From: Brevinematales bacterium
GTDB lineage: Bacteria > Spirochaetota > Brevinematia > Brevinematales > JAOACQ01
Assembly: GCA_026417755.1 (NCBI GenBank)
Contig: JAOACQ010000103.1
Coordinates: forward strand, 8,822-72,821
Length of the DNA: 64,000 nucleotides
Direction: 5' to 3'
Position numbers and translations under genes: made by a program. Positions 4,056 to 19,779 of this stretch are shown here, one piece after another; position 1 is the stretch's first letter, and the number at the start of each line of letters is the position of its first letter. Under the pieces are notes generated by a model that saw only the letters and a program-made list of their open reading frames with translations, was not told where the DNA came from and made no database searches.

Positions 4056-4086
4056 GCCCTGTGGTAGATAGCCACAGGGTTTTTTA
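4056..4086. terminator. Bidirectional intrinsic terminator between convergent genes
   Basis: Stem CCCTGTGG (4057-4064) pairs with CCACAGGG (4072-4079) around a 7-nt loop. A T6 run follows on the plus strand and a T-rich tail on the minus strand. Confidence 0.7.
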
Positions 4087-4821
4087 ATAAAAAATCATAT
4101 CTACATTTGTAGACCCAAGAAATTGTGGATTCTGATTTGTTCTCATCCCCTTTGAATCTATAAAAAAATAATTTGTTACATATGACCTTGTATAGTAATA
4201 AAGTTCAGAGAAAGTTACAAACCCATCAAGGTTTATATCTGCCCTCTTATCATCAAGACCTTTAAGTAAATAATAAGTAAAAAGTCCATGCTTTAAATCA
4301 GAATCTTCTATCGACTCCTCACCATCCATAGAAGCCGTCATAACAAAAAATCTACGGTAGGCTATATAAGCACCAGAAAAACATTTATCAAAAATAAGCA
4401 AAACCTTTTCACTCCTTGAATTTTTAAGCCAATTAAAAAGTTCTGTTTCACAAATAAAACTATTGATATCACCCACATTAGCATCATAAGGAACAATATA
4501 GCTTAATAGATTGCTTCTCATTCCATGTCCAGAAAAATAAAACACATACGTATCCTCAGGTTTTAGGGAAGCAATTGTTTCAACAATATCATTTGAAATG
4601 TTTAATTTCGTTGCTGTATTATTCGTTTTCATCCTGACTGTAAAACCATTATTCCTTAAAAAAGACTCTAAACTAACTGCATCCTCAACACAGTATTTCA
4701 AATCATTGACATTAGCATAATCTTCTATCCCATATATTGTGGCATATTTTCTACCATCACCCGTCTCAAAATTAAAAAGTGAACACGAGGTTAAGAATAA
4801 TAATAACAATAAGATAACCAT
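4084..4821 (-). CDS. Caspase-like cysteine peptidase (family C14, metacaspase/orthocaspase-like) lipoprotein
   Basis: 245 aa with lipobox LTSC (Cys13). His-Cys dyad contexts are YFSGHGM (His99) and LLIFDKCFSGA (Cys147), as in the metacaspase SxHG / DxCxSG motifs. The start overlaps the upstream stop (TAATG). Confidence 0.75.
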   Translation of the reverse strand: MVILLLLLFLTSCSLFNFETGDGRKYATIYGIEDYANVNDLKYCVEDAVSLESFLRNNGFTVRMKTNNTATKLNISNDIVETIASLKPEDTYVFYFSGHGMRSNLLSYIVPYDANVGDINSFICETELFNWLKNSRSEKVLLIFDKCFSGAYIAYRRFFVMTASMDGEESIEDSDLKHGLFTYYLLKGLDDKRADINLDGFVTFSELYYYTRSYVTNYFFIDSKGMRTNQNPQFLGSTNVDMIFY

Positions 4822-5372
4822 TAAAATACCCTGTAACTTAAACTTAAAGAATATAATAATGAAATATTAACATCGCTTGAAATATCAAAATATTTAATCA
4901 AACCAACATTCAAAGTTGCAAAAAATTTATCACTAAAATTATACCCCATCCCAAGTGAACCTGAAAGTTCAGTTAAAACATATCGAGGATAATAATAAGA
5001 GAAAATCAAAAAATAAGGAATTCCGCTTCCAATTCCTGCTTCAAAGTAAAAACTTTTAATATTATAATTAAATACAAAATCAAACCCAATAGGCAACTTA
5101 ATTTTATCAGGATAAAGATATCCTCCAACCTTATCTGATTCTCCAATATAATAAAAACCTGGAAAAGTTAATTGAACACCAATATAATCATTAAAAGCAA
5201 TCTTAAAAAGATTAGCAAAACCCCCACCAAGTTGAATCTTTGTCTTAAAACTTTCTCCTCTATAATCATAAAAATTTTGTTCAAGACCTGTTTTAATTCC
5301 ATAATTAACTTTCACCCCACTATAAGCAATAGAAAAAATAAAAATAGTAATATAAAAAATTCTATACATCAA
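4821..5372 (-). CDS. Small outer-membrane beta-barrel-like protein
   Basis: 183 aa with a signal peptide. Alternating hydrophobic/aromatic and Gly-rich strands, and a terminal ...LSYRVF with C-terminal Phe typical of OMPs. Confidence 0.5.
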   Translation of the reverse strand: MMYRIFYITIFIFSIAYSGVKVNYGIKTGLEQNFYDYRGESFKTKIQLGGGFANLFKIAFNDYIGVQLTFPGFYYIGESDKVGGYLYPDKIKLPIGFDFVFNYNIKSFYFEAGIGSGIPYFLIFSYYYPRYVLTELSGSLGMGYNFSDKFFATLNVGLIKYFDISSDVNISLLYSLSLSYRVF

Positions 5373-5378
5373 AAAACC

Positions 5379-6419
5379 TCACTTAATAATATTAAACTTA
5401 ATCATTTTCTGCCTCAAAGTATTTCTATGAATTCCAAGCATTGCAGCAGCCTCAGAAATTCTCCATCTACTTTTTTCAAGCGCAGCAATGATCTGTGCTT
5501 TTTCTATCTCTTTGAGTTCATTTTCAGTTATTACGAGATTATCTTTCTTTACAAATCTTTCATTTTCTAATATCCCTCCTTTCAGGGATATATTAAACAT
5601 ATTCTCTGGCAAATCTTTAAGAGTTATCTTTCCATTTTCACACATTATTATTGCATGATGAATGACATTTTCAAGCAGCCTTTCATTAACATTCCAGTCA
5701 AGAGAGAGAAAGAAATCTAGTACATCTTTCTCAATATACTCAATTGGGTTGTTTTCCTTTCTTGAGTAAAGTTTAATAAAATATTTTGTTAGAACAGGTA
5801 TATCTTCCATTCTTTCTTTTAATGAAGGCAACTTAAGATAAACAACATTAAGTCTGTAGTATAAATCTTCTCTGAACTTAGAGAGCCTTACTTCTTCCCA
5901 CAAATTTCTGTTTGTTGCTGATATTATTCTCACATCGACAGGAATAATCTCAAGTCCACCAACTCTTGAAATAGTTTTATTCTCTATAACACGGAGTAAC
6001 TTAGACTGAAGATTTAAGGAAATCTCACCTATTTCATCAAGAAATATAGATCCATCATTAGCAAGCTCAAACTTACCAATCTTCTTTTTATCAGCACCGG
6101 TAAATGCACCTTTTTCATAACCAAAAAGTTCACTTTCAAGGAGTGTTTCCGGAATTTCAGCACAACTTATCTTAACAAGTCTTTTTGAAGCCCTCTTACT
6201 TAACATATGAGCAGCAGTAGCAAAGAGTTCTTTTCCCGTTCCACTCTCTCCTTCTATCAATATATTTGCTTCACTCCGTGCAGCTCTCTTCAATTTAAGA
6301 AAGGCATTAATAATGGCTTTAGAATACCCTATAATACCAAAGTTCTGCATTTCTTTAATAATCTCTAAATTTTCTTCCTCAGGGTGTTTGATGATTTTAT
6401 CAAGTTCTTCAAGTTTCAT
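5379..6419 (-). CDS. Sigma-54-dependent transcriptional activator (AAA+ EBP) lacking an N-terminal sensory domain
   Basis: 346 aa. Walker A GESGTGKE, GAFTGA loop (YEKGAFTGA), Walker B IFLDEIGE, ISATNR, and a C-terminal Fis-type HTH (AAAMLGIHRNTLRQKM). Only ~26 aa precede the AAA+ core. Confidence 0.85.
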   Translation of the reverse strand: MKLEELDKIIKHPEEENLEIIKEMQNFGIIGYSKAIINAFLKLKRAARSEANILIEGESGTGKELFATAAHMLSKRASKRLVKISCAEIPETLLESELFGYEKGAFTGADKKKIGKFELANDGSIFLDEIGEISLNLQSKLLRVIENKTISRVGGLEIIPVDVRIISATNRNLWEEVRLSKFREDLYYRLNVVYLKLPSLKERMEDIPVLTKYFIKLYSRKENNPIEYIEKDVLDFFLSLDWNVNERLLENVIHHAIIMCENGKITLKDLPENMFNISLKGGILENERFVKKDNLVITENELKEIEKAQIIAALEKSRWRISEAAAMLGIHRNTLRQKMIKFNIIK

Positions 6420-6428
6420 AGTCCATCC

Positions 6429-7571
6429 TTATCGATATTCTATAAAGCCTTCCCTCAAATCCTTATATACCCCTCTCGCTTTTTTCTTGATAGCTTCGCT
6501 ATATTCTCCCTCTATTATCCCCTTTAATATTTCTTCTGACTTATAAACCTTTTCAAAATAAACATAGACCTCTGCAAGACTTATCATAGAATTAGCATAA
6601 AAATTCTTATCATTTTTAAACTTCATAATATTCTTTTCTATATCTTCCACTTCATCCAATGTTGCAATTTTATTTCTCTTCAACAATTCAAGTAAACCAC
6701 TTATAACCATTTTTTTAGTATCATTATCTGATTTTGCAAGCGCATCTCTATAATAAATATAACCTTCTTTATCTCTTTTTCTTGCAATATTCAATAAACC
6801 GTTATAATAAAGTTTTCTCCCCTCATTTTTTATATCATTAATTATCTTTTGTGCCTTTTCATAATTGCTTCTTCTTATAAGAAGTTCGATAAGGTTATAC
6901 CTCACTATATCCTTTTCATCTTCTGTTATATCAGAATTAATTAAATTTTCATACTCTTTTACAGCTTCAGCATAAGGAAGATTGTTTTTAATATTTTCTA
7001 TAATTCCTTTTATACCAAGAGCTGAGATTTTTTCATTTGTAACCTCGTTTGTTACTTCTACCTTTTTCTCTTTATTTGACACTTCTTCTACTTTCTGGAT
7101 CACATTAGTTTCAACAATTATGTTTATGTAATAATTAAGTCTTTTTTTAACCTCACCATCAGCATTAACAAGCTCAAATCTTATCTTACTATCCTTTTTC
7201 CCGGAAATAAAGGAAAAGATCCCATCTTCTATTCTAGTATCATTTGAATTAAATATAGTGTCTCCTTCTATTGATTTTAATACTACAAATCCATCTTTAT
7301 AAGGAACTTTTATTGTAAAAATATTATTGTTTTTTATTCTCACAATTTTATTTTCGCTCTCTATTTTCTTTTCTACAGGCAAATTTTGTTCAATCCTCTC
7401 ATCTTCTGAAAGAATATTTGTTTCATTATTTTTATTACTAATTGCCCCAATATCTTTCAAAATTTGTTCCATAAGATTAAAATCAATCTTTTTAATGTTT
7501 CTTATAAGAATCAAGTGTTCCTGGCTGCAAGAAAATAACAACAAAAAAATCAAAAAAACTAATTTTTTCAT
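6429..7571 (-). CDS. Lipoprotein of unknown function, helical/TPR-like C-terminal half
   Basis: 380 aa with lipobox LLFSC. The N-terminal half is beta-rich. The C-terminal half is helical with TPR-like Y/A/L periodicity. Confidence 0.6.
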   Translation of the reverse strand: MKKLVFLIFLLLFSCSQEHLILIRNIKKIDFNLMEQILKDIGAISNKNNETNILSEDERIEQNLPVEKKIESENKIVRIKNNNIFTIKVPYKDGFVVLKSIEGDTIFNSNDTRIEDGIFSFISGKKDSKIRFELVNADGEVKKRLNYYINIIVETNVIQKVEEVSNKEKKVEVTNEVTNEKISALGIKGIIENIKNNLPYAEAVKEYENLINSDITEDEKDIVRYNLIELLIRRSNYEKAQKIINDIKNEGRKLYYNGLLNIARKRDKEGYIYYRDALAKSDNDTKKMVISGLLELLKRNKIATLDEVEDIEKNIMKFKNDKNFYANSMISLAEVYVYFEKVYKSEEILKGIIEGEYSEAIKKKARGVYKDLREGFIEYR

Positions 7572-7585
7572 AATAACCCACTTTA

Positions 7586-9175
7586 CTAACTTAAAAAACT
7601 TTTTGCTCCCTTATGTTCCGGATTGAGAGCTAATACCATATTAAAGACTCTTTCAGCCAAATCTTCCCTTCCAATTTCAAATAATTGTTGCCCAATTTTG
7701 TAAAGAAAATCTTCATTCTGTTTAAAAAATTCTATACATTCCATAAATATCTCTACTGCCTTATCAATCTCTCTGAGTCTGATCTTAGTAAGGGCATAAG
7801 CATAGAGATATTCTCCTTTTTTATCTCTTAAAATAAGTTTCTCAAATATTTTATCAGCTTCTTGATATTTTAGCAAATTAGATTTAACTATTCCTAAAGT
7901 ATAGAGTAATTCTGAACTTTCAGGAAAAAATTTAAGAGACAATTCTATAATTTCTTCTGCTTCAATTGGTTTGTTAAGCATAAATAAAGAATTACCTATT
8001 ATCAAAAAAAATCTTTCTTCTTTGACATTATTCTCAAGAAGCTGTTGTCCATAAATAAGAGCTTCCTCATATCTTTCAATATAATAACTACACAAAGCTA
8101 ACTGCTTCAAGATTTCAATCTTAAAATTGTTATCAACCTCATATTCTAAAAATTTCTTAAATATATTATAACCTTCTTCAAAATTTCCTTCCATAACAGC
8201 TATAAGACCAATTTTAATCTCAAAAACCTTATTTTTTGTTTTTTCAAAACACTTCTGATAAGATTTTTTTGCATATTCAATATCGCCAAGCTCAAAAAAT
8301 GTATCTCCTAAAACACCAAAATAATTTTGATCTAAAGGTTCATATAAAAAAGCCTTCCTTAAAAATTCTAAAGCCATACTAAAATCATTCTTAGCCTTAT
8401 AAGAAAGTCCAATATAATTATAAAGTTCAAATAGATATTTTTTTCGCTCTAAACCATAAGTTAAAAATTCTATTGCCTTGTCATATTGTCCAGTTTCATA
8501 ATAACTAATTCCAAGCCCAAAATATAGATAATCAACCTGAACTTTAATATTTTTGTCTTTTTTTAAAATATTATAAAAATTTTCAAAATATTTAACCGCA
8601 TCGACGAACTCTTTTTTCAAAAAAGAACCTATCCCCATTCCATAAATAGAAAGTGGTGTCTGTTTTTTCTCATACATTCGCTGAAATAAATCGATGGCAT
8701 AATCAATCTTTTGTAATTCAATAAATCTTATACCTACCATATAAATATTTTCATCATAAGAATCAAAAAATTTCTCATCCTTTGTGATATTATAAGCCTT
8801 CTCGTATTGTTTTTGCTCAATATAGCAATATGCTATATAAGGTAAAGCATAAGAATAATAATCATCTATAACATCTATGCTTTTAAGATATTTTAAACTC
8901 TCCTCAAAATCATAAAGATAAAAGTTTACGACTCCCATATTATATTTAAGATAGTTTTTCTCCGGTTCAAGTTTAAGAGCCTCCCCTATTATAATTTTGG
9001 CCTTTTTAAACTCATTTTTCTCAAGAAATATATTTGAAAGATAAAACAACATTTTTTTTATTTCTTCTAGATCATCAAACAAATCATAAATCATCTTTAA
9101 TGCTTCGTTTGTTTTACCCAGTTCAAGAAGTTTATAAAAGAAATCTATATTAAAATTTCTGTCAACAGTAGCCAT
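7586..9175 (-). CDS. Tetratricopeptide-repeat protein (cytoplasmic, ~12 TPR units)
   Basis: 529 aa with many 34-aa repeats of the W/Y-G-Y-A-F-P pattern (e.g. YNMGVVNFYLYDFEESLKYLKS, YFGLGISYYETGQYDKAIEFL). No signal peptide. Confidence 0.75.
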   Translation of the reverse strand: MATVDRNFNIDFFYKLLELGKTNEALKMIYDLFDDLEEIKKMLFYLSNIFLEKNEFKKAKIIIGEALKLEPEKNYLKYNMGVVNFYLYDFEESLKYLKSIDVIDDYYSYALPYIAYCYIEQKQYEKAYNITKDEKFFDSYDENIYMVGIRFIELQKIDYAIDLFQRMYEKKQTPLSIYGMGIGSFLKKEFVDAVKYFENFYNILKKDKNIKVQVDYLYFGLGISYYETGQYDKAIEFLTYGLERKKYLFELYNYIGLSYKAKNDFSMALEFLRKAFLYEPLDQNYFGVLGDTFFELGDIEYAKKSYQKCFEKTKNKVFEIKIGLIAVMEGNFEEGYNIFKKFLEYEVDNNFKIEILKQLALCSYYIERYEEALIYGQQLLENNVKEERFFLIIGNSLFMLNKPIEAEEIIELSLKFFPESSELLYTLGIVKSNLLKYQEADKIFEKLILRDKKGEYLYAYALTKIRLREIDKAVEIFMECIEFFKQNEDFLYKIGQQLFEIGREDLAERVFNMVLALNPEHKGAKSFLS

Positions 9176-10186
9176 TTATCCCTCTATTATAGATAAAAAA
9201 ATTCTTACTAATTCAGGATCAAACTGCTTTCCAGAATTAAAAATAAAGTCTTTTTTAATTGATTCAAAATCCTTAGGAGAAGAATAAAGAGTCCCATTCA
9301 ACATTCTATCATAAGCATTAGCAATACTTACAACCCTCGCAAAAAGAGGAATTTTTAACCCCTTAAGTCCTTCAGGATAGCCATCTCCATCAAATCTTTC
9401 GTGATGATAACTAACTATTTCAAGAACATGTGAATTGTTTGCAAGCATAGGTAAGAGAATCTTCCTGCCTATAAGAGGATGCCTCTTTATAATTTCATAT
9501 TCCATCTCCTCTAGTTTCCCATTTTTAAGCAAAATATTATCAGGTATACCAATTTTACCAATGTCATGAAGTGTAGCTCCCATAATCAAACTATCAAGTT
9601 CTTTCTTTGAAAACCCTGCTTTTTTACCCAACTTTTCTGCATATATTGCTACATTATGGGAATGTTCAAGAGTTTTAACATCACGAACCTCAAGTGTATT
9701 AAGTATAGCTTTTAAACTATCATAAAAAGAACTTTCAAGCTCCTTTTTTGCTTCTTTTACAGCTTTTTCAAGTGAAATAATATATTTTTTCTTCTCATAC
9801 AAAAGTCTAAGTTTATCAACAACTCTATTAATAGCAAAGAGTATTTCATCAACTGTAAAAGGTTTTAAAATATAATCATAGGCACCGTTTCTTATTGCCT
9901 CTTTCAAATTTTCAACACTCCCATAAGCAGAGATAACTATAATATGAGCTTCAGGATTATAATCTTTTATTTTTTTTATTAATTCAAGCCCTGTGATTTT
10001 TGGCATCATAATATCTGTAACCACAACATCTATCTCGTTTGTCTTATAGATTTCAAAAGCATCTTCTCCATTTTCGGCACTATAGAGCATATTGACAACT
10101 GGAGAGAGCTTCAAAATATCATTTAAAACCTTTAAAACAGAAATTTCATCCTCAACTATTAAAAAATTATATTTTTTCTTTTGCAT
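9176..10186 (-). CDS. Response regulator with HD-GYP domain (putative c-di-GMP phosphodiesterase, RpfG-like)
   Basis: 336 aa. REC domain (IVEDE, VVVTDIMMP, ISAYGS, ILKP) followed by HDIGKIGIP and HHERFDGDGYPEGL. Confidence 0.85.
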   Translation of the reverse strand: MQKKKYNFLIVEDEISVLKVLNDILKLSPVVNMLYSAENGEDAFEIYKTNEIDVVVTDIMMPKITGLELIKKIKDYNPEAHIIVISAYGSVENLKEAIRNGAYDYILKPFTVDEILFAINRVVDKLRLLYEKKKYIISLEKAVKEAKKELESSFYDSLKAILNTLEVRDVKTLEHSHNVAIYAEKLGKKAGFSKKELDSLIMGATLHDIGKIGIPDNILLKNGKLEEMEYEIIKRHPLIGRKILLPMLANNSHVLEIVSYHHERFDGDGYPEGLKGLKIPLFARVVSIANAYDRMLNGTLYSSPKDFESIKKDFIFNSGKQFDPELVRIFLSIIEG

Positions 10187-10195
10187 ACCATCCCT

Positions 10196-11014
10196 TCAGT
10201 TTATATTAAGATAAAACCAGGCTGTAGCATAATTTTTATCTATCCTCATAGCAATTTTAAGAAATTTTTCTGCAAGAGAGTTATACCCCAATTTACTTAG
10301 ACATTTCGATGTCTTAAATGCAAAGTTTGGAATATCTGAATACGTCTCCTGAGCTTTGAGATAATATTCCAAAGCCTCTTTATATTTTCCCTCTTCATAA
10401 TATATTTCTCCTATCTGAAAATAGGCAAGCGCATTAAAAAAATTATCAAGAGTTGTATTAACTATCTTTTCAAAAAATTCCTTCGCTTCTTTAAATTTTT
10501 TCTGATTCAAATACGACATCCCAATAAAATAAAGTGTATCAGAAGAAGAAAACTTATGATATGATAATTTCAAATCTTCTATAGCCTTATCATATTCTCC
10601 AATCTTATATTCGCAAATTCCTTTCATTTTATAAAAATATTCTTTAAACTCTACTGGGACATTACTTATAGCATTGAAAAATAAAAGTGTGTTTGAATAT
10701 TCATTTTTAGTTTTAGAATTCAGAAAAAGTAGATAAGCCAAACCAAAATTTTTATAATTAATAATATTTGTATGAATATCTTTCTCAACAAGATTACTTA
10801 ACTTATGAATAAAGTCTTTGTCCCCTTCAAGCGAGAGCCTTAAAACTATTCGATACTCCCTCTTCTGGTAATTGAAATTATTTTTATTTTTTATATTTTC
10901 AAGAATACTATAGGCTTTTAAAAAATCTCTTTTATCATAAGCCTCATCAAATCTATAATAAGATGAACAGGACACAAACCCTAAAAAAACAAAAAAATAT
11001 AAGAGTCTTACCAT
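10196..11014 (-). CDS. TPR-repeat lipoprotein
   Basis: 272 aa with lipobox GFVSC and TPR units (e.g. YFQIGEIYYEEGKYKEALEYYLKA). Confidence 0.7.
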   Translation of the reverse strand: MVRLLYFFVFLGFVSCSSYYRFDEAYDKRDFLKAYSILENIKNKNNFNYQKREYRIVLRLSLEGDKDFIHKLSNLVEKDIHTNIINYKNFGLAYLLFLNSKTKNEYSNTLLFFNAISNVPVEFKEYFYKMKGICEYKIGEYDKAIEDLKLSYHKFSSSDTLYFIGMSYLNQKKFKEAKEFFEKIVNTTLDNFFNALAYFQIGEIYYEEGKYKEALEYYLKAQETYSDIPNFAFKTSKCLSKLGYNSLAEKFLKIAMRIDKNYATAWFYLNIN

Positions 11015-11334
11015 ACCTCAAAAAAACCCTCTCCTTCTTTATATTTCAAGCCTTTCTCTTTAAGAAAAACCTTTATTTCTTCTGCTAAGACTGGTTTTAA
11101 AGTATTACTATGTCTACCTTTTCCTGTAATTATCTTAAGAATAACCTTCTCATTAAGAACTCTATTAACATTATATTCAATTATAGATATTGCTTCTTTC
11201 AAAGTTTTTCTATGCAAATCTATAACTATAAACTGTTTATTTTCTTTACTTTCTTTTATATTTTCAATTTTAACAGGTTTAACATTCTTCATAGCATTAA
11301 CAAAAATCTCTTCCGGATTCATCACACTCCTCAA
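11008..11334 (-). CDS. Smr-domain protein
   Basis: 108 aa containing IDLHRKTLKEA and ITGKGRHS, matching the Smr LDLHG / TGxGxHS motifs. Confidence 0.7.
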   Translation of the reverse strand: MRSVMNPEEIFVNAMKNVKPVKIENIKESKENKQFIVIDLHRKTLKEAISIIEYNVNRVLNEKVILKIITGKGRHSNTLKPVLAEEIKVFLKEKGLKYKEGEGFFEVW

Positions 11335-12365
11335 TTAAGATAATAGCAGGAAACAGTTCCAGGAAACAAAAAGAAGTTTAACTTCCTATCTACTTTCAAA
11401 ACTCCACCACCTGTTAAAGAAAAATAAACCCCATTCTTTTTATCAAAATTATTATCTATATCAAATGCAGAAAAATTGTCATAAAGATTAATAACAAATA
11501 CTTTATTCCCACTACTAAAAATCATAATTTTATCAGAGAAATATATCCTTTTAAAATTATCTTTCTCTAAAAAATCAATCATCTCTATTATTACAGGATT
11601 AAGTAACTTATAATTAACAAGAATTTTTTCTTTTTTAATAATCATATAACATATTGCAGAAATATTATTGATAGAAAATTCATCACTTTCAATTAAATTA
11701 ATCTCCCCCGCTAAATTAAAATTATCAATCCCCTTAAAATCAGCCTCAGGAAATAAGAAAAATTTCCTTCTTAAATCCCAGTAATAACTGGCACACACAC
11801 TTTTACCCTTTACTCTTGATAATTTATTATTTACAAAAAAAATCGAATTTTCAAGCTCATTAGCAAAGCTCTGAACAATATCTTCAACTTCCTTATCCTG
11901 AAAAGTAGAGAGATCAAGTGAGATTTTATAACCTTTAGAATTAATGATTGACAAATAACCCTTTATCTTGTTTTTCGTAATGGGAGAAGAATAATTCAGA
12001 ACATAGTTAAAGGAATACTTTGTACTCTCTTTTTTAAAGTCATTTAGGTTCCATAATCTTCTACTAAAATACTTTGGTTGATTAAATAAAGATAGATAAA
12101 TGTAAGAATTTATACCTTTCTGGCTTAAAAAAGAAGATATTTCTTTAACTGAAATATTCTCATACTCAAAATCGTATATACCACCTTCCTTTGTAGTTCT
12201 GAAAGGATTATCAAGTATTACAAAATCTATTTTAACACCTTTTGCTTCCATTGATTGAACTATATTGGTAATCTTAGAAAAATCAGCTCCCCTGAAATCA
12301 ATAGCAATAGAAAAAGAAAATTTAAACCCTGCCAGAAGTAAAAAGAAATAAAAAAACCTTTTCAT
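11331..12365 (-). CDS. Secreted protein of unknown function
   Basis: 344-aa ORF with a signal peptide. 4-nt overlaps/gaps on both sides. I recognise no diagnostic motif. Confidence 0.5.
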   Translation of the reverse strand: MKRFFYFFLLLAGFKFSFSIAIDFRGADFSKITNIVQSMEAKGVKIDFVILDNPFRTTKEGGIYDFEYENISVKEISSFLSQKGINSYIYLSLFNQPKYFSRRLWNLNDFKKESTKYSFNYVLNYSSPITKNKIKGYLSIINSKGYKISLDLSTFQDKEVEDIVQSFANELENSIFFVNNKLSRVKGKSVCASYYWDLRRKFFLFPEADFKGIDNFNLAGEINLIESDEFSINNISAICYMIIKKEKILVNYKLLNPVIIEMIDFLEKDNFKRIYFSDKIMIFSSGNKVFVINLYDNFSAFDIDNNFDKKNGVYFSLTGGGVLKVDRKLNFFLFPGTVSCYYLN

Positions 12366-12369
12366 AAGA

Positions 12370-13329
12370 CTAATCCTTTAAGCTGGTAAAAGCAAGAGCC
12401 GCAGAACCAAGAATACCCGCATCATTACCCATCTCTGCAAGTTTTATTTCAAACACCTGATAAGCAAAAGGAATAGCATAAAGCGAAGTATAAAACTTTA
12501 CCTTCTCAAGCAAAAATTCTTTAGCCCCCGACACCCCACCACCTATTATACAACATTCGGGGTTTAATATATTAACAATATTAGCTATACCAAGCCCAAG
12601 ATATCTACACATTTCTTCAAATATCTCAAGAGAAATCTTATCTCCACCTTTTGCTTCTTCAACTATCACTTTAGCATTTATGTTATCAGGATAATATTTA
12701 ATGAGAGTTGTCTTTACACCTTTTCTCACAAGAGATTTTGCTCTTTTAATGATAGATGAAGCAGAAGCAAAAGCCTCCCAGCACCCATAATTTCCACAAC
12801 CGCAAGGTCTTCCGTCCAGATCAATAAGCATATGCCCCACCTCACCCGCACAACCATTCTTACCATGGTATATTTTTCCGTTAATAAAAATCCCGGCCCC
12901 TATACCCGTCCCAACGGTAATAACCACAAAATTACTCATTCCTTTACCAGCACCAAACAAAAACTCTCCAGTAGCTGCATTATTAGCATCATTATCAACA
13001 AAAACTGGCACTTTAAATTCTTCTTTAAGTTCTTTAGCCATTGGATAATTCTCAAAAACCCTTATATTTGAAAAAATATTAATATTACCCTTATCGTCTG
13101 CTATACCCGGAACCCCAACACCAATAGCTTTGATTTTCTTATCCTTGTTTTTAAGCATAAGATTACTTATAGAATCTTTAATATTTTGCATAACAACCAA
13201 AGAGGAATTTGCTTCAACTCCTGTTGGAATCTGAAGAGAGTCAACTATATCCCCCTTCTCATTAACAATCCCTGCCTTAATAAAAGTTCCTCCAAGATCA
13301 ACACCAATGCAAAAACTCATTTGTACCAC
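12370..13329 (-). CDS. ROK-family glucokinase
   Basis: 319 aa. N-terminal DLGGT, the ROK signature, and the zinc motif GHMLIDLDGRPCGCGNYGCWE. Confidence 0.85.
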   Translation of the reverse strand: MVQMSFCIGVDLGGTFIKAGIVNEKGDIVDSLQIPTGVEANSSLVVMQNIKDSISNLMLKNKDKKIKAIGVGVPGIADDKGNINIFSNIRVFENYPMAKELKEEFKVPVFVDNDANNAATGEFLFGAGKGMSNFVVITVGTGIGAGIFINGKIYHGKNGCAGEVGHMLIDLDGRPCGCGNYGCWEAFASASSIIKRAKSLVRKGVKTTLIKYYPDNINAKVIVEEAKGGDKISLEIFEEMCRYLGLGIANIVNILNPECCIIGGGVSGAKEFLLEKVKFYTSLYAIPFAYQVFEIKLAEMGNDAGILGSAALAFTSLKD

Positions 13330-13335: not shown

Positions 13336-13758
13336 TTATTTAAGAATTTGTCCTATTCTTTCTATTACCTTTTCCCTATCAATTGGCTTTACAATATAGC
13401 CTTTTGCACCAAGTTTTATAGCTTCTTTCACAGATTCAACCGTACCAAGAGCTGTTATCATCACCACTGTAACGTTTGGATCAAGTGCCTTTATAGCCTT
13501 AAGTGTCTCAATCCCATCCATTTCTGGCATTGTGATATCAAGCGTTACAAGGTCTATCTGCCCCTTCATAGACTTAAACAACTCAAGCCCAGCTTTACCA
13601 TTCTCAGCCGTCCCTGCAATCTCAAAATCCCTCGACATAAAGATTTGTGTCAGATGCTTTATAACAAATTGTGAATCATCAACTATCAATACTCTTACAT
13701 GTCCCCCCTCAACCTTTCTACCTGTAGGAAGACCATTTTCATCAAAAATTATAGCCAT
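13336..13758 (-). CDS. cheY: Chemotaxis response regulator CheY
   Basis: 140-aa single REC domain (LIVDDS, LDITMPEMDG, ITALG, IVKP) in a che operon. Confidence 0.85.
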   Translation of the reverse strand: MAIIFDENGLPTGRKVEGGHVRVLIVDDSQFVIKHLTQIFMSRDFEIAGTAENGKAGLELFKSMKGQIDLVTLDITMPEMDGIETLKAIKALDPNVTVVMITALGTVESVKEAIKLGAKGYIVKPIDREKVIERIGQILK

Positions 13759-13769
13759 ACATTCCTCCT

Positions 13770-14234
13770 TTAATTTTCTTTAAAGGCAACATTGATTTCT
13801 ACAATTCCAAGTCCTGTATCTATAGGAATTATTAAAGCCTCCATATCAGAAAATTCATAAATATGAATATTTTCTCCTGTTATTATAGTAGGTGGAGTAA
13901 AATTGAACGATAGATTTTCTTTTTCAAGTCTAGTTACAGACCTACCTGTTACCATATTTGCGAGTTCCCCTATAGTGCTTCTGACCATATCATCAAATTT
14001 TGAGAACTTTTCCCCATTCATTTTAGAGGCAATATTCAAAGCTGTATCCTCTGTCATATCAAAAACAATCCTCCCACTAACATTACCTGTAACACCTATG
14101 ACAACAGCAACCCCCTTCATTGAATCCCCAAGTTTCTTAAGGTAAAGCTCATTCCTTTTGACATTTGTTTTTAAAACTTCATTGAGAATATCAAAAGCAG
14201 CTTCGATAAAAGGATTGATATATTCTATCCTCAT
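13770..14234 (-). CDS. cheX: CheY-P phosphatase CheX (CheC/CheX family)
   Basis: 154 aa. INPFIEAAFDIL N-terminus, TIGELANMVTGR (E-x2-N motif) and FTPPTIITG match my recollection of the Thermotoga/Borrelia CheX layout. Confidence 0.7.
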   Translation of the reverse strand: MRIEYINPFIEAAFDILNEVLKTNVKRNELYLKKLGDSMKGVAVVIGVTGNVSGRIVFDMTEDTALNIASKMNGEKFSKFDDMVRSTIGELANMVTGRSVTRLEKENLSFNFTPPTIITGENIHIYEFSDMEALIIPIDTGLGIVEINVAFKEN

Positions 14235-14770
14235 TTTACCTCCTTATATTTACTTTCCTGCTTTATAACAGAAATATAATCAAGAATACCAGATAAAGAT
14301 AAAGTAAAAATCTCTCTCTCATCTTCTAGGATTATTCCTTCAAATAGATAATTCTTAACCCATTTGTTTATAACATCCTGATTTCTATATTTTTCATCAG
14401 TTACTGAAACATTTTTATATATACCATCAACAACAAGCCCAAAAACATCTTTCTTATCTTTGAGAATTAATATTAGCTTTTCTTCATCAAAAATCTTATT
14501 TGTATGCTTAATCTCATCATTTTCTTCTAAAATTGACTTTAAACTAAAAACAGGAACAATATTTCCCCTCAGGTTTATAACTCCAAGAAGCTCTTTTGCT
14601 GTATTCGGGACTCTATATATAGTTTTAAAAAATATTATCTCCTGAAGATAATTTATATTAATTGCAAAAAAACTTTTATCCAGTTTAAATATTATAGCAT
14701 TAAAAAGAATATTTCGCTTAACTTTTTCTTCTTCTTTTTCAACTCTTTTATTTAATATTTCCTTTTCCAA
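14231..14770 (-). CDS. cheW: Chemotaxis coupling protein CheW
   Basis: 179 aa with CheW-like blocks (FAININYLQEI, VPNTAKELLGVINLRGNIVPVF, GLVVDGI). Confidence 0.8.
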   Translation of the reverse strand: MEKEILNKRVEKEEEKVKRNILFNAIIFKLDKSFFAININYLQEIIFFKTIYRVPNTAKELLGVINLRGNIVPVFSLKSILEENDEIKHTNKIFDEEKLILILKDKKDVFGLVVDGIYKNVSVTDEKYRNQDVINKWVKNYLFEGIILEDEREIFTLSLSGILDYISVIKQESKYKEVK

Positions 14771-14784
14771 CTTTCTCTCCTTTT

Positions 14785-16935
14785 TTATTCTGAATGAGTA
14801 ATAACCCTTTCAACATCTATTATAAAAGCAATATCTCCATTGCCTATTATAGTAGCAGCAGAAATACCATAAGTTTTAACCAGTCTATTGTTTAGTGGTT
14901 TAATAACTATATCTTGCTCCCCAATCACATTATTAACTATAAGCCCAAAATTTTTATCCTTTGATTTTACAACAATACAATAATTTTTTTCAATTTCCTC
15001 GATAGAAATTTTTTTGTGATAGAAAAATTCTTCGAGGAAAATCACAGGAACAAGATTTTCTCTTAAAAATATCATTTTCTTTCCATTGATATCCTTGAAA
15101 TCATTCTTTGAAACCACTATGGTTTCTTCTATAGAAGCAATAGGAACAAAATAATGAATCTCATTAACAACCACAAGTAGCCCTTGAATAATAGCTAATG
15201 TCAATGGGAGTCTTACAACTATTCTAGAACCTTTATTTTTAGCAGTATAGAAACCTACATTCCCACCCATTTCTTCAATCTTCTTCTTTACCACATCCAT
15301 GCCGACTCCTCTACCTGATATTTCTGTAACCTGCTTTGCAGTAGAAAATCCAGGTAAAAAGATGAGGGCAAGAAGCTCTTTTTGAGTCATTTTTTCCACA
15401 ACTTCTCTAGGAAATATTCTACTATCTATAGCTTTTTTTCTCAAGGCATCAAAATCAACCCCTCTTCCGTCATCCATCGCCTCAATTACTATACTATCAC
15501 CTTCATGATATGCTTTAAGCACAATCCTTCCTTTTGCTGGTTTACCGAGTTTAAGCCTTTCTTCCGTTGGCTCTATACCATGATCAAGAGAATTTCTGAT
15601 AATGTGGATCAAAGGATCAAAAATATCATCAACCATACTTTTATCTATCTCTGTTTCAACCCCTTCTATAAGAAGTTCAACATCTTTCTTCATCTTTTCT
15701 GCCATATCCCTCACAAGTCTTGGAAATCTCGAAAAGACTGTCTGGATAGGAACCATTCGCAAATTCATAACATTTTCCTGTAGTGAAGAAGAAATCCTTG
15801 ATAACTTCTGGACAGTCTCCCTATAATCATCAAAAACCTGAAACATTTCAATGAATGAATCAAGCAAAATTGCATTTTTTTCTAATTTTATTTTTTCATC
15901 ATTATCAAGATTAAGTTTTAAGACTCCACTCAAGAATGGTTTAAGAATATTTTTTAAAACTACCTCGGCCTTTCCCATCTTATCATAGATCTGAGATAAA
16001 GAAGCCTTTGTAATAACAAGTTCCCCCATAAGATTTAATAGCTCATCAACCTTCCAGCTTTCTACTCTTATAGTTGATGTTGCCCTCTTTGTTTCTTCAA
16101 CATCTTTTTGTTCCTTTTGGGGTGAACTATCAAGCGGTTTTTGAAGATTACTAACTGAAAAACCATCTAACATTTCTTTTGTCAGGAGCAAAATATCAAT
16201 TTTATTAAGCATTTCTGTTAAAAAAGTCTTATCCATTATTTCTTTTTCAGATTTTTCAGTGGCAAAAACAAAACATACCTCTTTAGCAAAAACACTTTCT
16301 AAATAGTTAAGAGTTGGTTCCATTTTGATAATCTCACCAATATCATTTAAGAGAGCATAAACCTGAAATGGTGCAACATCCTTCATTTCATATTGTTCGT
16401 TAAAGTCATAGCAAAGGACATAGACTTTTTTACCTTTTTCAATTAATTCATGAATATTTTCTATTTCAAAATTTGTAAGTTTTGACTTAATAAGTTCTGT
16501 CGATAGCTTACTAGTCTTCGTAGAAGAAGAAACCATCCCCGAAGGTGATTTTTCTCCTTTTAAATACTTAAAAAACTCAATAAGTTTTAGCTGCCTATCC
16601 GAGGAATATACATTTCCTTTTTCTCTTTCAACCAGCATTTTTTCTATTTCATCTTTAGCCTCTAAAAAATTTGAGATATATTCAGATGTAATAGCTAAGT
16701 TCTTTTTTCTCACCATATCCATAACATCTTCAAAAAGATGGGTAAAATCCTTAATTTCACTAAAACCAACCGTAGCCGCACCACCCTTAATAGTATGAAC
16801 ACTTCTAAAAATTTCATTGATAGACTTTTGATTTTCTGGTTCTTTCTCCAAAACCAATAGACTTTCCTCAAGAGAAGAAACAAGCTCAAAAGCCTCTGAC
16901 AAAAAATCTTTTACTAATTCTTCGGATAAATCCAT
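14785..16935 (-). CDS. cheA: Chemotaxis histidine kinase CheA
   Basis: HPt site SVHTIKGGAATVGF, dimerisation domain, HATPase blocks (IIRNSLDHGIE, DDGRGVD, GRGVGMDVV) and a C-terminal CheW-like domain. I prefer the ATG at 16935 (GGGG 6 nt upstream). The track's TTG at 16947 is the alternative. Confidence 0.9.
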   Translation of the reverse strand: MDLSEELVKDFLSEAFELVSSLEESLLVLEKEPENQKSINEIFRSVHTIKGGAATVGFSEIKDFTHLFEDVMDMVRKKNLAITSEYISNFLEAKDEIEKMLVEREKGNVYSSDRQLKLIEFFKYLKGEKSPSGMVSSSTKTSKLSTELIKSKLTNFEIENIHELIEKGKKVYVLCYDFNEQYEMKDVAPFQVYALLNDIGEIIKMEPTLNYLESVFAKEVCFVFATEKSEKEIMDKTFLTEMLNKIDILLLTKEMLDGFSVSNLQKPLDSSPQKEQKDVEETKRATSTIRVESWKVDELLNLMGELVITKASLSQIYDKMGKAEVVLKNILKPFLSGVLKLNLDNDEKIKLEKNAILLDSFIEMFQVFDDYRETVQKLSRISSSLQENVMNLRMVPIQTVFSRFPRLVRDMAEKMKKDVELLIEGVETEIDKSMVDDIFDPLIHIIRNSLDHGIEPTEERLKLGKPAKGRIVLKAYHEGDSIVIEAMDDGRGVDFDALRKKAIDSRIFPREVVEKMTQKELLALIFLPGFSTAKQVTEISGRGVGMDVVKKKIEEMGGNVGFYTAKNKGSRIVVRLPLTLAIIQGLLVVVNEIHYFVPIASIEETIVVSKNDFKDINGKKMIFLRENLVPVIFLEEFFYHKKISIEEIEKNYCIVVKSKDKNFGLIVNNVIGEQDIVIKPLNNRLVKTYGISAATIIGNGDIAFIIDVERVITHSE

Positions 16936-16947
16936 AAATAACCCCAA

Positions 16948-18036
16948 TTATTTAAAAAATCTATTTATAGCAAGTCCAATCTCTTCAACGTTCAAGACGA
17001 CATCAACCCCACCCATTTTTACTGCATTACCCGGCATACCCCAGACAGCTGACGATAACTCATCTTGTGCGATCACAAAGGCTCCTGCCTTTTTAAGGCT
17101 AACACATTCTGCTGCTCCATCCTTACCCATTCCAGTTAATATAATTGCAAGAATATCAGTTGACACATACTGTCTTATCGACTTAAAGAATATATCTACT
17201 GAAGGTTTGAAAAAAAAACCTTCATATTCATTATTATCTTCTTTAAAAACAATAGAATTATCAATCTTCACAAGTTTTGCGTGCTTTCCACCAGGACATA
17301 TATATATAACTCCAGCCTCAAGTTTATCTTCATTATTTAACTCTTTCACCATTCTGTTAAAAGAATGTTCAAGATTCTTTGCAAACTCAAGTGTAAAACC
17401 GGGTGGCATATGTTGAGCAATCACAAGAGGAACTGGTAAATTATCAAGATCCTTTATAATTCTTCTTAAAGCTACAGGTCCACCCGTAGAACTTCCTATA
17501 GCTACAAGCTCCGGCTTCACTCTTTTATTCTCAAAAACCCTATCAAACTCATTCAAACCAACAGCATAATCCTTTTTAGTCTCAATTTTTTCTATTTTTG
17601 ATTCGCTTAAAACATCTTTTCTCGATAATAATCCATTAATCTTATAGTTAAATTCATTTTTTAAATAATTTATATTATCCTGAATATTTCCATCAGGTTT
17701 TTTTATTAACTCACTTGCCCCATAAGTTAAAGCATCAAAAACTGCAGAAGAACCTTCCTCAAGCAATGAACTAAACATTATAACTTTTGGAATTTTAGGA
17801 GGAGGATTTGTCTTAATGTATTTAAGAAAATCTATTCCATTCATTTCCGGCATTTCGATATCCAATACAACTACATCAGGAGAATAAAGCAACATCTTTT
17901 GTAACCCTATTTTACCATCTGAAGCTGTCGCAACCACTTCCATTCCAATATCAGAAAGAATCTGTGAAAGATACTTTCTTACTAATACTGAATCATCTAC
18001 AATCATAACCCTGGTTTTATCTTCAGTCTTTAACAT
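16948..18036 (-). CDS. cheB: Protein-glutamate methylesterase CheB (REC + CheB_methylest)
   Basis: REC (MIVDDS, LDIEMPEMNG) plus the esterase domain (GSSTGGP, QHMPPGFT, GMGKDGA). The start is probably the ATG at 18036 (GGAG upstream), with 18048 as the alternative. It overlaps the cheR 3' end. Confidence 0.9.
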   Translation of the reverse strand: MLKTEDKTRVMIVDDSVLVRKYLSQILSDIGMEVVATASDGKIGLQKMLLYSPDVVVLDIEMPEMNGIDFLKYIKTNPPPKIPKVIMFSSLLEEGSSAVFDALTYGASELIKKPDGNIQDNINYLKNEFNYKINGLLSRKDVLSESKIEKIETKKDYAVGLNEFDRVFENKRVKPELVAIGSSTGGPVALRRIIKDLDNLPVPLVIAQHMPPGFTLEFAKNLEHSFNRMVKELNNEDKLEAGVIYICPGGKHAKLVKIDNSIVFKEDNNEYEGFFFKPSVDIFFKSIRQYVSTDILAIILTGMGKDGAAECVSLKKAGAFVIAQDELSSAVWGMPGNAVKMGGVDVVLNVEEIGLAINRFFK

Positions 18037-18832
18037 AAGCCACTCCATTGTTCAAAGTTACTGGTTTAAATTTTTCATAAATACCAAATAAACTTTCTGA
18101 GTGACCTAATAATAAATAAGCATTTTTTTTAGTTGATATATAAAAATTCTCAAGTACTTTTCTCTGCACATCCTCATCAAAATAAATTATCACATTTCTA
18201 CAAAACACACAATCAATATCCCTTATTCCATTATCATATATCAAATTATGCAGGTCAAATTTAATCTTTTTCTTTAAAAAATCTTTTATTATAAAAATAT
18301 CATTAGATACAGAATCAAAATATTTTTGCAGGTAAATATTACTTACCTTTGTAACACTTTTACCAGAATATTTACCCTCCTTAGCAATAAAAAGACTCTC
18401 AAGACTTATATCTGAGGCAACAATTTCAAAATCAAAACCCTTATTGAAAAACCCATTTTTCTCCATATATTCATAAGTCACCATCGCTATTGTATATGGT
18501 TCCTCACCAGTTGAACAACCCGCACTCCAGATTTTAATTTTTTTATCAGAATTTTTAATGATTTCTGGTAAAATTTCGTTTTCATACATTTCAAATTGTC
18601 TTTCATTTCTGAAAAAACTCGTAAAATTAGTGGTAACAAAATCAACAAACGAATTAAGTTCATTTTTGTCAGTAGTTAATAATTCATAATACTTATCTAT
18701 TGGTAGTTTTTTTTCTTTTATCTTTGCATCAAGCCTGCTTTTAAGAACTGAAATATTGGATTCTTTAAAAACAATACCACAAGTCTTATAAACTATTTCT
18801 GCAATATTATTAATAATATTTACCTCATCCAC
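18023..18832 (-). CDS. cheR: Chemotaxis protein methyltransferase CheR
   Basis: 269 aa containing TNFTSFFRN, IWSAGCSTGEEPYT and FCRNVIIYFD. GTG start with AAGGGG SD. Confidence 0.9.
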   Translation of the reverse strand: MDEVNIINNIAEIVYKTCGIVFKESNISVLKSRLDAKIKEKKLPIDKYYELLTTDKNELNSFVDFVTTNFTSFFRNERQFEMYENEILPEIIKNSDKKIKIWSAGCSTGEEPYTIAMVTYEYMEKNGFFNKGFDFEIVASDISLESLFIAKEGKYSGKSVTKVSNIYLQKYFDSVSNDIFIIKDFLKKKIKFDLHNLIYDNGIRDIDCVFCRNVIIYFDEDVQRKVLENFYISTKKNAYLLLGHSESLFGIYEKFKPVTLNNGVAYVKD

Positions 18833-18842
18833 AAAGGCCCCT

Positions 18843-19727
18843 TTAACTATCCATTACAACAACTTCTTTATACAAAGCAAGCTGGTTAGATAACTCATAC
18901 TCAAACAAATCTCCTATCAAGACCATATCCATATTTTCAAAAGCCTCTATAACCTTAACAAGTAGAGAATTCATATCTTCATAAAGTTTACTAACTTTTT
19001 CTTGTTTGTCTTCTTTGAAGGTCTTTATATTCCTTTTAAGGAATGTTGTAAGAATTTCCATAACATTTATCAAATATTCTATACTTTGAAGAGCTTCTTT
19101 GTCCTTACCAATCTGAAAAGCCTCAGAAACTTTTGGTAATAAATTTAAACTTTCATCAATCAAATTACCAAGCTCTTCTTTTTTTGGGAGTTGAAAATAT
19201 ATGAGTTTCTCCCTTACAGCTTTCACATAGTTTATAAGACTATCAATAACAGTTATAAGTGTTTCTATGTTAATATCTTTTTCATCTAACTCAAAAAACT
19301 TAATCACTTTTTCTATTGAACTTATTATTGTAATAGACTCACTATTTCCAATATAACCAGTTTTACCGATAGTTTGAATTGTATCTTTAACCCATATAAA
19401 AGCATCAATAATCTCCTGTTTTTGGCTTAACCCTCTCTCTTTAAGCGAATTTTTTACTTCGGTTAGAAGTCTCTGACACTCAAGAAAAAGGTCATAAATA
19501 ACCTCTTCCTTCTTCTGAGCAACAACTTCTATTTCCCTAACATTATCAACAGGCATCTTTGAAAGAGCATCATCATCAAAGTTTATTTCATTCCCATCAA
19601 TTAAAACCCTTGTAATAAGAGCATCTTCAGTCGAAAGTAACTGTGATAAAGACTTAAGAACATCAAGAACATTTTTCTCATTCTCAAGCACAAAATCAAT
19701 TATTTCATTATTAATCTTCAATTTCAT
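18843..19727 (-). CDS. Unknown all-helical protein, first gene of the che gene train
   Basis: 294-aa ORF with an SD (AAAGGAGAA) upstream. No signal peptide and no MCP signalling motif. E/K/L-rich helical repeats. Confidence 0.6.
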   Translation of the reverse strand: MKLKINNEIIDFVLENEKNVLDVLKSLSQLLSTEDALITRVLIDGNEINFDDDALSKMPVDNVREIEVVAQKKEEVIYDLFLECQRLLTEVKNSLKERGLSQKQEIIDAFIWVKDTIQTIGKTGYIGNSESITIISSIEKVIKFFELDEKDINIETLITVIDSLINYVKAVREKLIYFQLPKKEELGNLIDESLNLLPKVSEAFQIGKDKEALQSIEYLINVMEILTTFLKRNIKTFKEDKQEKVSKLYEDMNSLLVKVIEAFENMDMVLIGDLFEYELSNQLALYKEVVVMDS

Positions 19728-19750
19728 TATATTCTCCTTTTTACATTAAT

Positions 19751-19779
19751 AATATAAAACATAACTGAATTTTATTCAA
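19751..19779 (-). promoter_or_regulatory. Candidate sigma70-type promoter TTGAAT-17-TATATT for the che gene train
   Basis: On the minus strand, TTGAAT is at 19779-19774, followed by a 17-nt spacer and TATATT at 19756-19751. It lies ~25 nt upstream of the first ATG (19727). Confidence 0.35.

Follow-up and report, generated by a model that had tools for sequence, protein, structure and literature searches.

The locus described here raises the question of whether genes for chemotaxis, for cyclic di-GMP (c-di-GMP) signalling and for sigma-54-dependent transcription, which lie head to tail on one strand, also belong together in function. In the 64-kb stretch of Brevinematales DNA that was analysed (hereafter the window; ~30% G+C), 17 consecutive open reading frames (ORFs) on the minus strand, from 19727 down to 4084, lead from a chemotaxis (che) core through a receiver (REC)-HD-GYP regulator and a sigma-54 enhancer-binding protein (EBP) to a caspase-like lipoprotein. 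Gene content, intact catalytic and receiver motifs, tight spacing, collinearity in nine genomes and unrelated flanks were all observed. We lean, with some confidence, towards the reading that the region is a lineage-conserved super-operon of Brevinematales, built of five modules, in which the chemotaxis core is joined to a c-di-GMP phosphodiesterase regulator and to the EBP. The conservation of the gene order in nine genomes suggests a coupling of swimming control with second-messenger signalling. The 17 genes (g01 to g17, in their order along the strand) and the candidate control signals at the two ends of the train are the following.

19751..19779, minus strand: sigma-70-like site TTGAAT-17-TATATT, candidate operon promoter in the 142-nt gap upstream of g01 (score 9/12)
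18843..19727, minus strand: g01, 294 aa, TP0873_N plus DUF8042 family (precomputed Pfam PF27299/PF26154)
18023..18832, minus strand: cheR, methyltransferase (Pfam CheR, 5.5e-57)
16948..18048, minus strand: cheB, REC plus methylesterase (Pfam CheB_methylest, 5e-53, and Response_reg)
14785..16947, minus strand: cheA, classical, without a C-terminal receiver (Pfam Hpt, P2, H-kinase_dim, HATPase_c and CheW, all above cutoff)
14231..14770, minus strand: cheW, stand-alone, 179 aa, without a CheR-like fusion (Pfam CheW, 1.1e-23)
13770..14234, minus strand: cheX, CheY-P phosphatase family (Pfam CheX, 4.6e-22)
13336..13758, minus strand: cheY, single-domain receiver, 140 aa (Pfam Response_reg, 2.8e-30)
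12370..13329, minus strand: ROK-family sugar kinase (Pfam ROK, 1.2e-74)
11331..12365, minus strand: g09, secreted protein of 344 aa, no known family (signal peptide)
11008..11334, minus strand: small, stand-alone Smr-domain protein (Pfam Smr, 1e-6)
10196..11014, minus strand: g11, TPR lipoprotein with N-terminus C-S-x-Y-Y-[RKT]-[FV]-D (Pfam TPR families and lipobox)
9176..10186, minus strand: REC-HD-GYP regulator, predicted c-di-GMP phosphodiesterase of the RpfG family (Pfam Response_reg, 4e-27, and HD_5, 4e-28)
7586..9175, minus strand: cytoplasmic TPR protein of 529 aa, no signal peptide (Pfam TPR families)
6429..7571, minus strand: g14, lipoprotein of 380 aa with N-terminus C-[ST]-Q-E-[HG]-L-I (lipobox alignment)
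5379..6419, minus strand: sigma-54 EBP, AAA+ domain with GAFTGA plus HTH_8 (Pfam Sigma54_activat, 4.6e-67, and HTH_8)
4821..5372, minus strand: g16, putative small outer-membrane beta-barrel of 183 aa (signal peptide, alternating hydrophobic pattern, C-terminal Phe)
4084..4821, minus strand: g17, C14 caspase-like lipoprotein (Pfam Peptidase_C14, 7e-20; lipobox LTSC; dyad motifs SGHG and DKCFSG)
4057..4079, bidirectional: hairpin terminator with an 8-bp stem of which 6 pairs are G-C, common to the train and the convergent gene 3394-4041

Conservation of the gene order in Brevinematales

The g01 and HD-GYP proteins of the window have 100% identical counterparts at NCBI, from a metagenome-assembled Brevinematales bacterium (76,110-bp contig). 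The closest loci in a search with CheY were those of Brevinematia/Brevinematales genomes, and CheY identity to the Brevinematales relatives is 75-98%. In nine che-linked genomes (the window and the loci L161, L162, L163, L166, L167, L168, L003 and L171) the same order was found on one strand: the che genes down to cheY, the ROK gene, a secreted protein of ~375 aa, the Smr gene where present, the TPR lipoprotein, the REC-HD-GYP regulator, optionally a ~190-aa lipoprotein and/or a ~530-aa TPR protein, a ~385-aa lipoprotein and the EBP. The junctions of this block are of 55 nt or less, apart from two: the EBP gene of L162 comes after 397 nt, and the HD-GYP gene of L167 after 127 nt. Identities to the window range from 59 to 95% for the EBP and from 47 to 89% for CheA (seven loci each), and from 44 to 83% for the HD-GYP protein (all eight loci; 45% in L171). 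The seemingly fullest version of the block, 16 genes from g01 to the EBP gene, is that of L171, which comes from a groundwater metagenome.

Several members of the block are constant. The ROK gene directly follows cheY in 11/11 Brevinematales relatives whose locus reaches past cheY, and the same 11 carry the gene of the TPR lipoprotein with the CSxYY terminus. The first gene, g01, lies upstream of cheR in L001-L004 and L171 and heads the che run in every relative that covers the region, while the gene of the CSQEHLI lipoprotein (g14) is directly upstream of the EBP gene in all che-linked arrangements. The Smr gene is present in L161, L003, L002, L004 and L171 and absent from L162, L163 and L166-L168; homologues of the 529-aa TPR protein occur in L161, L162, L166, L003 and L171 and are lacking in L163, L167 and L168. 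The flanks of the block are not conserved: the PEGA and rml genes upstream of the train are absent from L001-L004, nothing upstream of g01 is shared with these loci, and downstream of the EBP gene the content varies by locus (ABC-transporter genes, a CsgG-like gene and others).

Among 76 non-Brevinematales che loci, none had g01, ROK or HD-GYP beside cheY, and a single one (L040) had an EBP-like gene, on the opposite strand. The EBP orthologs (P0001-P0041; 57-95% identity, all of ~346 aa) and the HD-GYP orthologs (P0121-P0154) are confined to Brevinematales, and the g01 family consists of only 10 clusters, all from Brevinematales-type sources. Beyond P0041 the identity to the EBP falls to 50%, in receiver-containing EBPs, and P0155, the weakest putative HD-GYP ortholog, has an unrelated gene context and marks the edge of its family. 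A metagenome scan with the HD-GYP alignment returned only paralogs of 33-37% identity, which are uninformative on orthology; for at least 14 pairs of EBP and HD-GYP clusters, the longest contig is equally long. Three Brevinematales-specific families, namely the TP0873-like first gene and the CSxYY and CSQEHLI lipoproteins, travel with the che genes. A preliminary description of this DNA had named beforehand what relatives should show if its proposal was right: a che core accompanied by the HD-GYP, EBP and caspase genes. For the HD-GYP and EBP genes this holds, in the nine collinear genomes; the caspase gene, which is found in three genomes, is outside the conserved unit.

On the super-operon reading, the first module (g01, cheR, cheB, cheA, cheW, cheX and cheY) would be a chemotaxis core of the ordinary flagellar type. 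If it works as in other spirochetes, CheA would be controlled by chemoreceptors whose genes lie elsewhere and would phosphorylate CheB and CheY, the latter acting on the motor switch; CheX would dephosphorylate CheY-P, and CheR and CheB would adapt the receptors. The ROK kinase, the secreted protein, sometimes Smr, and the TPR lipoprotein would form a second module, joined to cheY in every Brevinematales genome seen. The REC-HD-GYP phosphodiesterase with one to three lipoprotein/TPR genes (third module) and the receiver-less sigma-54 activator (fourth) would follow in most lineages, and the small beta-barrel with the caspase-like lipoprotein would be a fifth module, recently added in the window's clade. 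The block would be transcribed mainly from a promoter upstream of g01. With one main transcription unit, the sigma-54 activator and the c-di-GMP phosphodiesterase would be produced along with the che proteins, which would link motility control and c-di-GMP turnover, in their expression at least.

Spacing, control signals and breaks in the train

A greedy gene call reproduced the 17-gene train of the preliminary description together with its 16 junction values, which from g01 to g17 are 10, -26, 0, 14, -4, 11, 6, 4, -4, -7, 9, 0, 14, 9, 6 and -1 nt. Other plausible starts (CheA, CheB, and Smr at codon 4) shift the junctions by 12 nt at most, and the true start of cheA is likely the ATG at codon 4. 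A Shine-Dalgarno-like motif was found 4-13 nt upstream of the start in 11 of the 17 genes. The domains previously assigned along the train were all recovered with Pfam, and a signal peptide or lipobox is visible on g09, g11, g14, g16 and g17.

The control signals gave a mixed picture. The only minus-strand terminator-like hairpin within 4000-19800 is that at 4079-4057, at the end of the train, in agreement with the single intrinsic terminator described before. The other signal on which the single unit had been based, a sole sigma-70-like promoter upstream of the first gene, did not survive the comparison with the rest of the sequence. At least eight minus-strand sites within the train score 10/12, above the site at 19779-19751 (9/12), and the number of matches is at chance level (103 sites vs. 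88 ± 10 in shuffles). Since this DNA is AT-rich and matches occur at chance level, sigma-70 scans carry no information here, and with better sites inside the train the argument from a single promoter is void. A noncoding gap of at least 140 nt always precedes g01 (142 nt in the window, at least 280 nt in the relatives), which fits an operon start at this position.

Tight spacing taken by itself might also come from independent units (che; ROK to TPR lipoprotein; HD-GYP to EBP; barrel and caspase) that were set head to tail by the compactness of the genome, whose order was kept by descent and which have no functional link. In the window, 41 of the 54 same-strand junctions are of 14 nt or less, as are 25 of the 38 outside the train, with a median gap of 6 nt; tight same-strand packing is the norm in this genome. 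A run of 16 tight junctions has a naive probability of ~0.001, yet a second long run exists (43346-54478). The functions of the genes are heterogeneous, and many internal sigma-70-like matches equal the upstream one. Such an assembly of unrelated units is nevertheless unlikely in our opinion, considering that collinearity with gaps of 55 nt or less is kept across nine genomes, down to 47% CheA identity, where both flanks have been reshuffled, that no minus-strand terminator-like hairpin is found inside the train, and that gaps of 0-14 nt or overlaps leave little room for promoters outside coding sequence. Even with co-transcription as the only link, the locus would remain a clear case of a conserved "uber-operon" in a compact genome, and a caution against deducing function from tight spacing alone.

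Besides the general packing, a number of observations weigh against the super-operon, and some of them favour independent units. In L002 (Brevinematales bacterium NS, CP053071, which we take to be Longinema margulisiae) and in L004, the che genes are followed by the ROK, secreted protein, Smr and TPR lipoprotein genes and then, after 85-134 nt, by a purU-like gene, a CBM48 gene and a gene of unknown function. In L165 (Thermospira aquatica) and L169, the EBP ortholog instead comes after rpoN and a gene for a Jag_N/FapA-domain protein, and no T. aquatica member is contained in the listed HD-GYP ortholog family. In both pairs of loci the breakpoints are exactly at module borders. The lipoprotein and EBP genes of L162 are separated by a noncoding spacer of 397 nt (9603-10001), richer in G+C, where the other eight genomes have 6-19 nt; the spacer has room for a separate promoter, and a small RNA or the remains of a gene are other candidates for its content. 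Some synteny also reaches past the block: the genes for a metallo-beta-lactamase (MBL) and QueA lie a few kb downstream of the EBP gene both in the window and in T. aquatica. Given this shared pair and the tight packing of the whole genome, common descent alone could account for part of the conservation. Between cheY and the HD-GYP gene, well inside the block, are ROK and Smr, two genes of housekeeping type that are functionally unrelated. Finally, no canonical, well-placed -24/-12 site (GG-N10-GC) was found near the EBP gene in the window and 12 related loci, and, as a weak point, helix alpha-1 of the HD-GYP receiver (VEDEISVLKVL) resembles that of classical two-component receivers and not the 'DDS' type of CheY and CheB.

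The exceptions that split the block (L002, L004, L165 and L169) probably represent one lineage, Longinema/Thermospira; L. margulisiae and T. aquatica are near-congeneric according to a preprint. In two of these loci (L165:6642-12915 and L169:6549-12866, the latter a JGI metagenome contig) the genes form a run of rpoN, the Jag_N/FapA-domain protein, the EBP and a 607-aa unknown gene, which is possibly a core sigma-54 module of the order. Separately, cheR of L002 was found in two pieces (3342-3599 and 5137-5649; whole segment L002:3342-5649), with ~1.5 kb between them that holds a 442-aa ORF (3631-4959) without a Pfam match. The ORF is possibly a mobile element of a kind not yet characterised, and strain NS may lack a functional cheR; a T. 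aquatica ORF of the same length proved to be unrelated.

The chemotaxis core and the REC-HD-GYP regulator

The window contains a flagellar-type set, with stand-alone CheW, single-domain CheY, CheR, CheB, CheX and a CheA with all the expected domains. Outside Brevinematales, the best matches of CheX (47%), CheY (51%) and CheW are all in one Treponema locus (L005), where the order is cheA-cheW(-cheR-like)-cheX-cheY. Judging by this 47-51% identity, CheY-P would act on the flagellar switch. The operons of Treponema denticola and Borrelia burgdorferi (flaA-cheA2-cheW3-cheX-cheY3) have the same cheA-cheW-cheX-cheY order, with CheX as CheY-P phosphatase and no gene for a methyl-accepting chemotaxis protein (MCP) in the operon (10.1101/2020.03.11.986844; PMC4013479); with respect to these, the Brevinematales run adds cheR and cheB after the TP0873-like gene, and nine or ten further genes. 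With a Tsr signalling-domain probe, no MCP gene was detected in the 64-kb window, as previously stated for the train and its surroundings, or in any fetched Brevinematales locus. This absence is unremarkable, since spirochete che operons of this kind carry none (the Treponema locus L005 likewise lacks one), and the emphasis formerly placed on an MCP-less core is therefore not warranted. In Spirochaetia, a CheW-CheR-like fusion scaffold encoded in the cheA-cheX-cheY operon defines the F2 class (10.1101/2020.03.11.986844). The CheW of the window consists of a CheW domain only (179 aa), whereas a CheR-like match comes just after CheW in the Treponema locus, and for lack of the fusion the system was not assigned to F2.

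The first gene of the train had been listed as unknown. It does belong to a family, defined by the new Pfam entries TP0873_N and DUF8042, with a name taken from a Treponema pallidum protein. A confident AF2 model with a pLDDT of 89.8 consists of an N-terminal beta-grasp and eight long helices and gave no significant fold match in the PDB, where the sequence search was also empty. In the searchable literature on Brevinema chemotaxis, on TP0873 and on phosphotransfer from CheA to HD-GYP proteins, no earlier account of this gene arrangement was found.

The REC-HD-GYP gene is 3.1 kb downstream of cheY. Its product scores 98.7 bits against Pfam HD_5 (cutoff 27.2), and the residues D13/E14, D58, S86, K108, H207-D208 (HDIGK) and the HHERFDGDGYP motif at 261-271 are intact and invariant with respect to L003. 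The protein has the receiver, the HD residues and the GYP motif of the RpfG family, with which it shares its architecture and intact catalytic motifs, and is predicted to hydrolyse c-di-GMP. RpfG is paired with the hybrid kinase RpfC, whereas no such kinase is encoded near the Brevinematales gene. No che-linked locus has a histidine-kinase gene other than cheA within 10 kb, and it is possible, and plausible, that CheA also phosphorylates the HD-GYP receiver.

This possibility was the centre of the preliminary description, which proposed one branched pathway from CheA to CheY, CheB and the REC-HD-GYP protein, such that receptor input sets c-di-GMP and, via it or in parallel to it, sigma-54 transcription and surface proteolysis. 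The deep and tight co-localisation of the HD-GYP gene with che in nine genomes, the position of cheA as sole kinase gene of the block and the intact receiver and catalytic residues all speak for such a pathway, and CheA-like kinases are known that act on a c-di-GMP enzyme (Wsp/WspR; PMC3663191) or on a sigma-54 activator (Che3/CrdA; PMC3147164). Borrelia cells that have lost the HD-GYP enzyme PdeB, moreover, show altered flexing (a chemotaxis-like phenotype; PMC4013479), so that c-di-GMP already touches spirochete chemotaxis behaviour. PdeB differs from the Brevinematales protein in that it has no receiver domain and is not encoded in a che operon.

The precedents fit the window only in part. 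Like the window, the Wsp cluster of Pseudomonas is a che-type cluster that encodes a receiver fused to a c-di-GMP-metabolising domain, in the route from WspE to WspR (PMC3663191; PMC8846402), but WspR is a REC-GGDEF protein that makes c-di-GMP, whereas the HD-GYP protein is predicted to degrade it. Wsp has its own MCP and a CheA-REC hybrid kinase and lacks CheY and CheX, whereas in the window CheA has no REC, an MCP is missing, and CheY and CheX are present. A Wsp-like system of the alternative-cellular-functions (ACF) class was considered and set aside for these three reasons (no hybrid kinase, no dedicated MCP, a stand-alone CheY). The Che3 cluster of Myxococcus xanthus likewise has a sigma-54 EBP, the NtrC-like CrdA, encoded next to che genes (PMC3147164). 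CrdA has a receiver domain that is phosphorylated, and Che3 has no CheY; the Brevinematales EBP is without a receiver, and CheY and CheX are there. Control of the EBP of the Che3/CrdA type was discarded accordingly, the protein having no Response_reg match and all 41 orthologs being of ~346 aa.

The branched pathway as originally proposed appears improbable to us. CheA lacks the fused receiver that is typical of kinases of the Wsp and Che3 type, and a normal CheY-CheX pair is present. The known chemosensory systems that control c-di-GMP belong to the ACF or type IV pili (Tfp) classes and not to the flagellar one (PMC8846402). The HD-GYP gene is missing from the che run of one lineage, the ROK and Smr genes break up the supposed pathway, and the barrel and caspase genes, which L162 carries in inverted orientation, do not share the conservation of the block. 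In addition, no CheA or CheW gene was found near 80 more distant REC-HD-GYP loci, which argues against phosphotransfer from CheA to the HD-GYP receiver. The EBP, for its part, has no receiver domain and therefore is no direct target of CheA, so that the sigma-54 activator drops out as an output phosphorylated by this kinase. A stronger version, in which a flagellar-type CheA has the REC-HD-GYP protein as third cognate receiver, chemoreceptor occupancy directly shifts c-di-GMP and the EBP at the end of the transcript reads this signal, we regard as quite unlikely. If true, it would be the first flagellar-class chemosensory system with a c-di-GMP-degrading output, and a hard-wired form of the genetic cross-talk between c-di-GMP and chemotaxis in Borrelia. 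Such cross-talk is so far only genetic in spirochetes (phenotypes of Borrelia pdeA, pdeB and plzA), without molecular wiring, and the Brevinematales locus provides a concrete set of proteins (CheA, CheY, CheB and the REC-HD-GYP regulator) with which direct coupling can be tested.

As to the neighbours of the HD-GYP gene, the TPR and lipoprotein genes were compared with the flagellar collar protein FlcA. Scores of 26, 32 and 40 bits against NCBIfam FlcA_CTERM (32 bits for the 529-aa TPR protein), at a cutoff of 300, reflect generic TPR similarity only, and the assignment was rejected. The CSQEHLI lipoprotein gave no family match and no PDB match. In L166 (7198-9987), the TPR protein and this lipoprotein are contained in one 929-aa ORF with no stop between them, in which the internal signal peptide and the lipobox FISCSQEHLI are kept; this is either a read-through fusion or a case of an internal non-ATG start.

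The sigma-54 activator and the remaining genes

The EBP of the window scores 225 bits with Pfam Sigma54_activat and 56 bits with HTH_8, and its translation contains EKGAFTGADKKK (the GAFTGA loop). The AAA+ domain begins at residue 29, and no Response_reg match was found. The plan of the protein is that of PspF-type activators, an AAA+ core with GAFTGA and a C-terminal helix-turn-helix without an N-terminal sensor. Different from PspF, it has no adjacent gene for a PspA-like partner and no sigma-54 promoter was found nearby, and PspF itself gives only ~150 bits, as compared to 200-245 bits for ZraR, NifA, NtrC1 and FleQ in the PDB. Matches to TGGCAC-N5-TTGCW with up to 2 mismatches are more frequent in the window than in shuffled sequence (28 vs. 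14.9 ± 4.2; 0/100 shuffles reach 28), and none of the 28 is canonical or well placed. The rpoN gene adjoins the EBP gene only in L165 and L169. The two settings of the EBP gene, next to che genes or next to rpoN-fapA, are a hint of a role connected with motility.

This leads to a further explanation, in which a regulatory module of its own, for the envelope or motility, is made up of the HD-GYP, lipoprotein/TPR and EBP genes and rides on the che transcript, and the c-di-GMP level set by the phosphodiesterase modulates the EBP as it does FleQ and FlrA. Each of the nine che-linked genomes has the HD-GYP, lipoprotein and EBP genes as neighbours, and the EBP, which has no sensor domain, needs an external input. 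The alternative site of its gene, next to rpoN and a gene for a FapA-domain ("flagellar assembly protein A") protein, has a motility flavour, and the AAA+ domains of FleQ and FlrA are among its PDB relatives (~200 bits). The c-di-GMP-binding arginines of FleQ are presumably in LFRS, just before the AAA+ core, and in R-N after Walker A; at these positions, compared without an alignment, the window EBP reads MQNFG and GKELFATAAH. T. aquatica retains the EBP and has no HD-GYP ortholog in the family list, no sigma-54 promoter was found beside any EBP locus, and the lipoproteins, being extracytoplasmic, could have no direct contact with the EBP. With these points on either side, we hold a self-contained module of this kind to be distinctly improbable, and prefer the super-operon.

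The last two genes of the train are not part of the conserved unit. The barrel and caspase genes come after the EBP gene only in the window and in L161; L162 has the pair in inverted orientation, and the other loci lack it. The pair is a recent lineage-specific add-on of the window's clade. Its earlier inclusion in the pathway is contradicted by this occurrence in three genomes only, with one inversion. The 183-aa barrel protein had no family match. The caspase-like lipoprotein scores 72 bits with Peptidase_C14 (cutoff 21.4), with the catalytic His and Cys motifs SGHG and DKCFSG present, and 59 against the NCBIfam EACC1-type caspase model, below the cutoff of 140. An anti-phage defence function of the caspase, Smr and TPR genes was also considered and dropped, as PADLOC gave no match except for a generic caspase model.

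The secreted 344-aa protein between the ROK and Smr genes had no Pfam, NCBIfam, PDB or PADLOC match, and a genome scan with it found no relatives. A positional homologue is present in every Brevinematales relative that reaches this position, and ten were aligned; the position is kept and the sequence diverges fast.

The train is flanked by housekeeping genes (queA, metallo-beta-lactamase, Usp, a PEGA protein, rmlC/D, pyruvate kinase, ruvB and others). At 43346-54478 is the other long run of closely spaced genes in the window, an operon for phosphonate uptake and C-P lyase (phnD, phnC, phnE, phnG and so on). At 33590-36553, an extracytoplasmic function (ECF) sigma factor of 189 aa is encoded beside a 773-aa protein with FecR, PEGA and BamB-like beta-propeller parts, and the two resemble an unusual anti-sigma/sensor pair; the gene of another PEGA protein (19870-21474) is divergent from the che train. 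At 28147-29489, downstream of a LacI-type regulator, two CBM11 carbohydrate-binding proteins of 198 aa each are encoded in tandem. The serine hydroxymethyltransferase gene at 40570-42066 encodes 498 aa that match Pfam SHMT in two stretches, which suggests an insertion or an N-terminal extension with respect to a typical GlyA.

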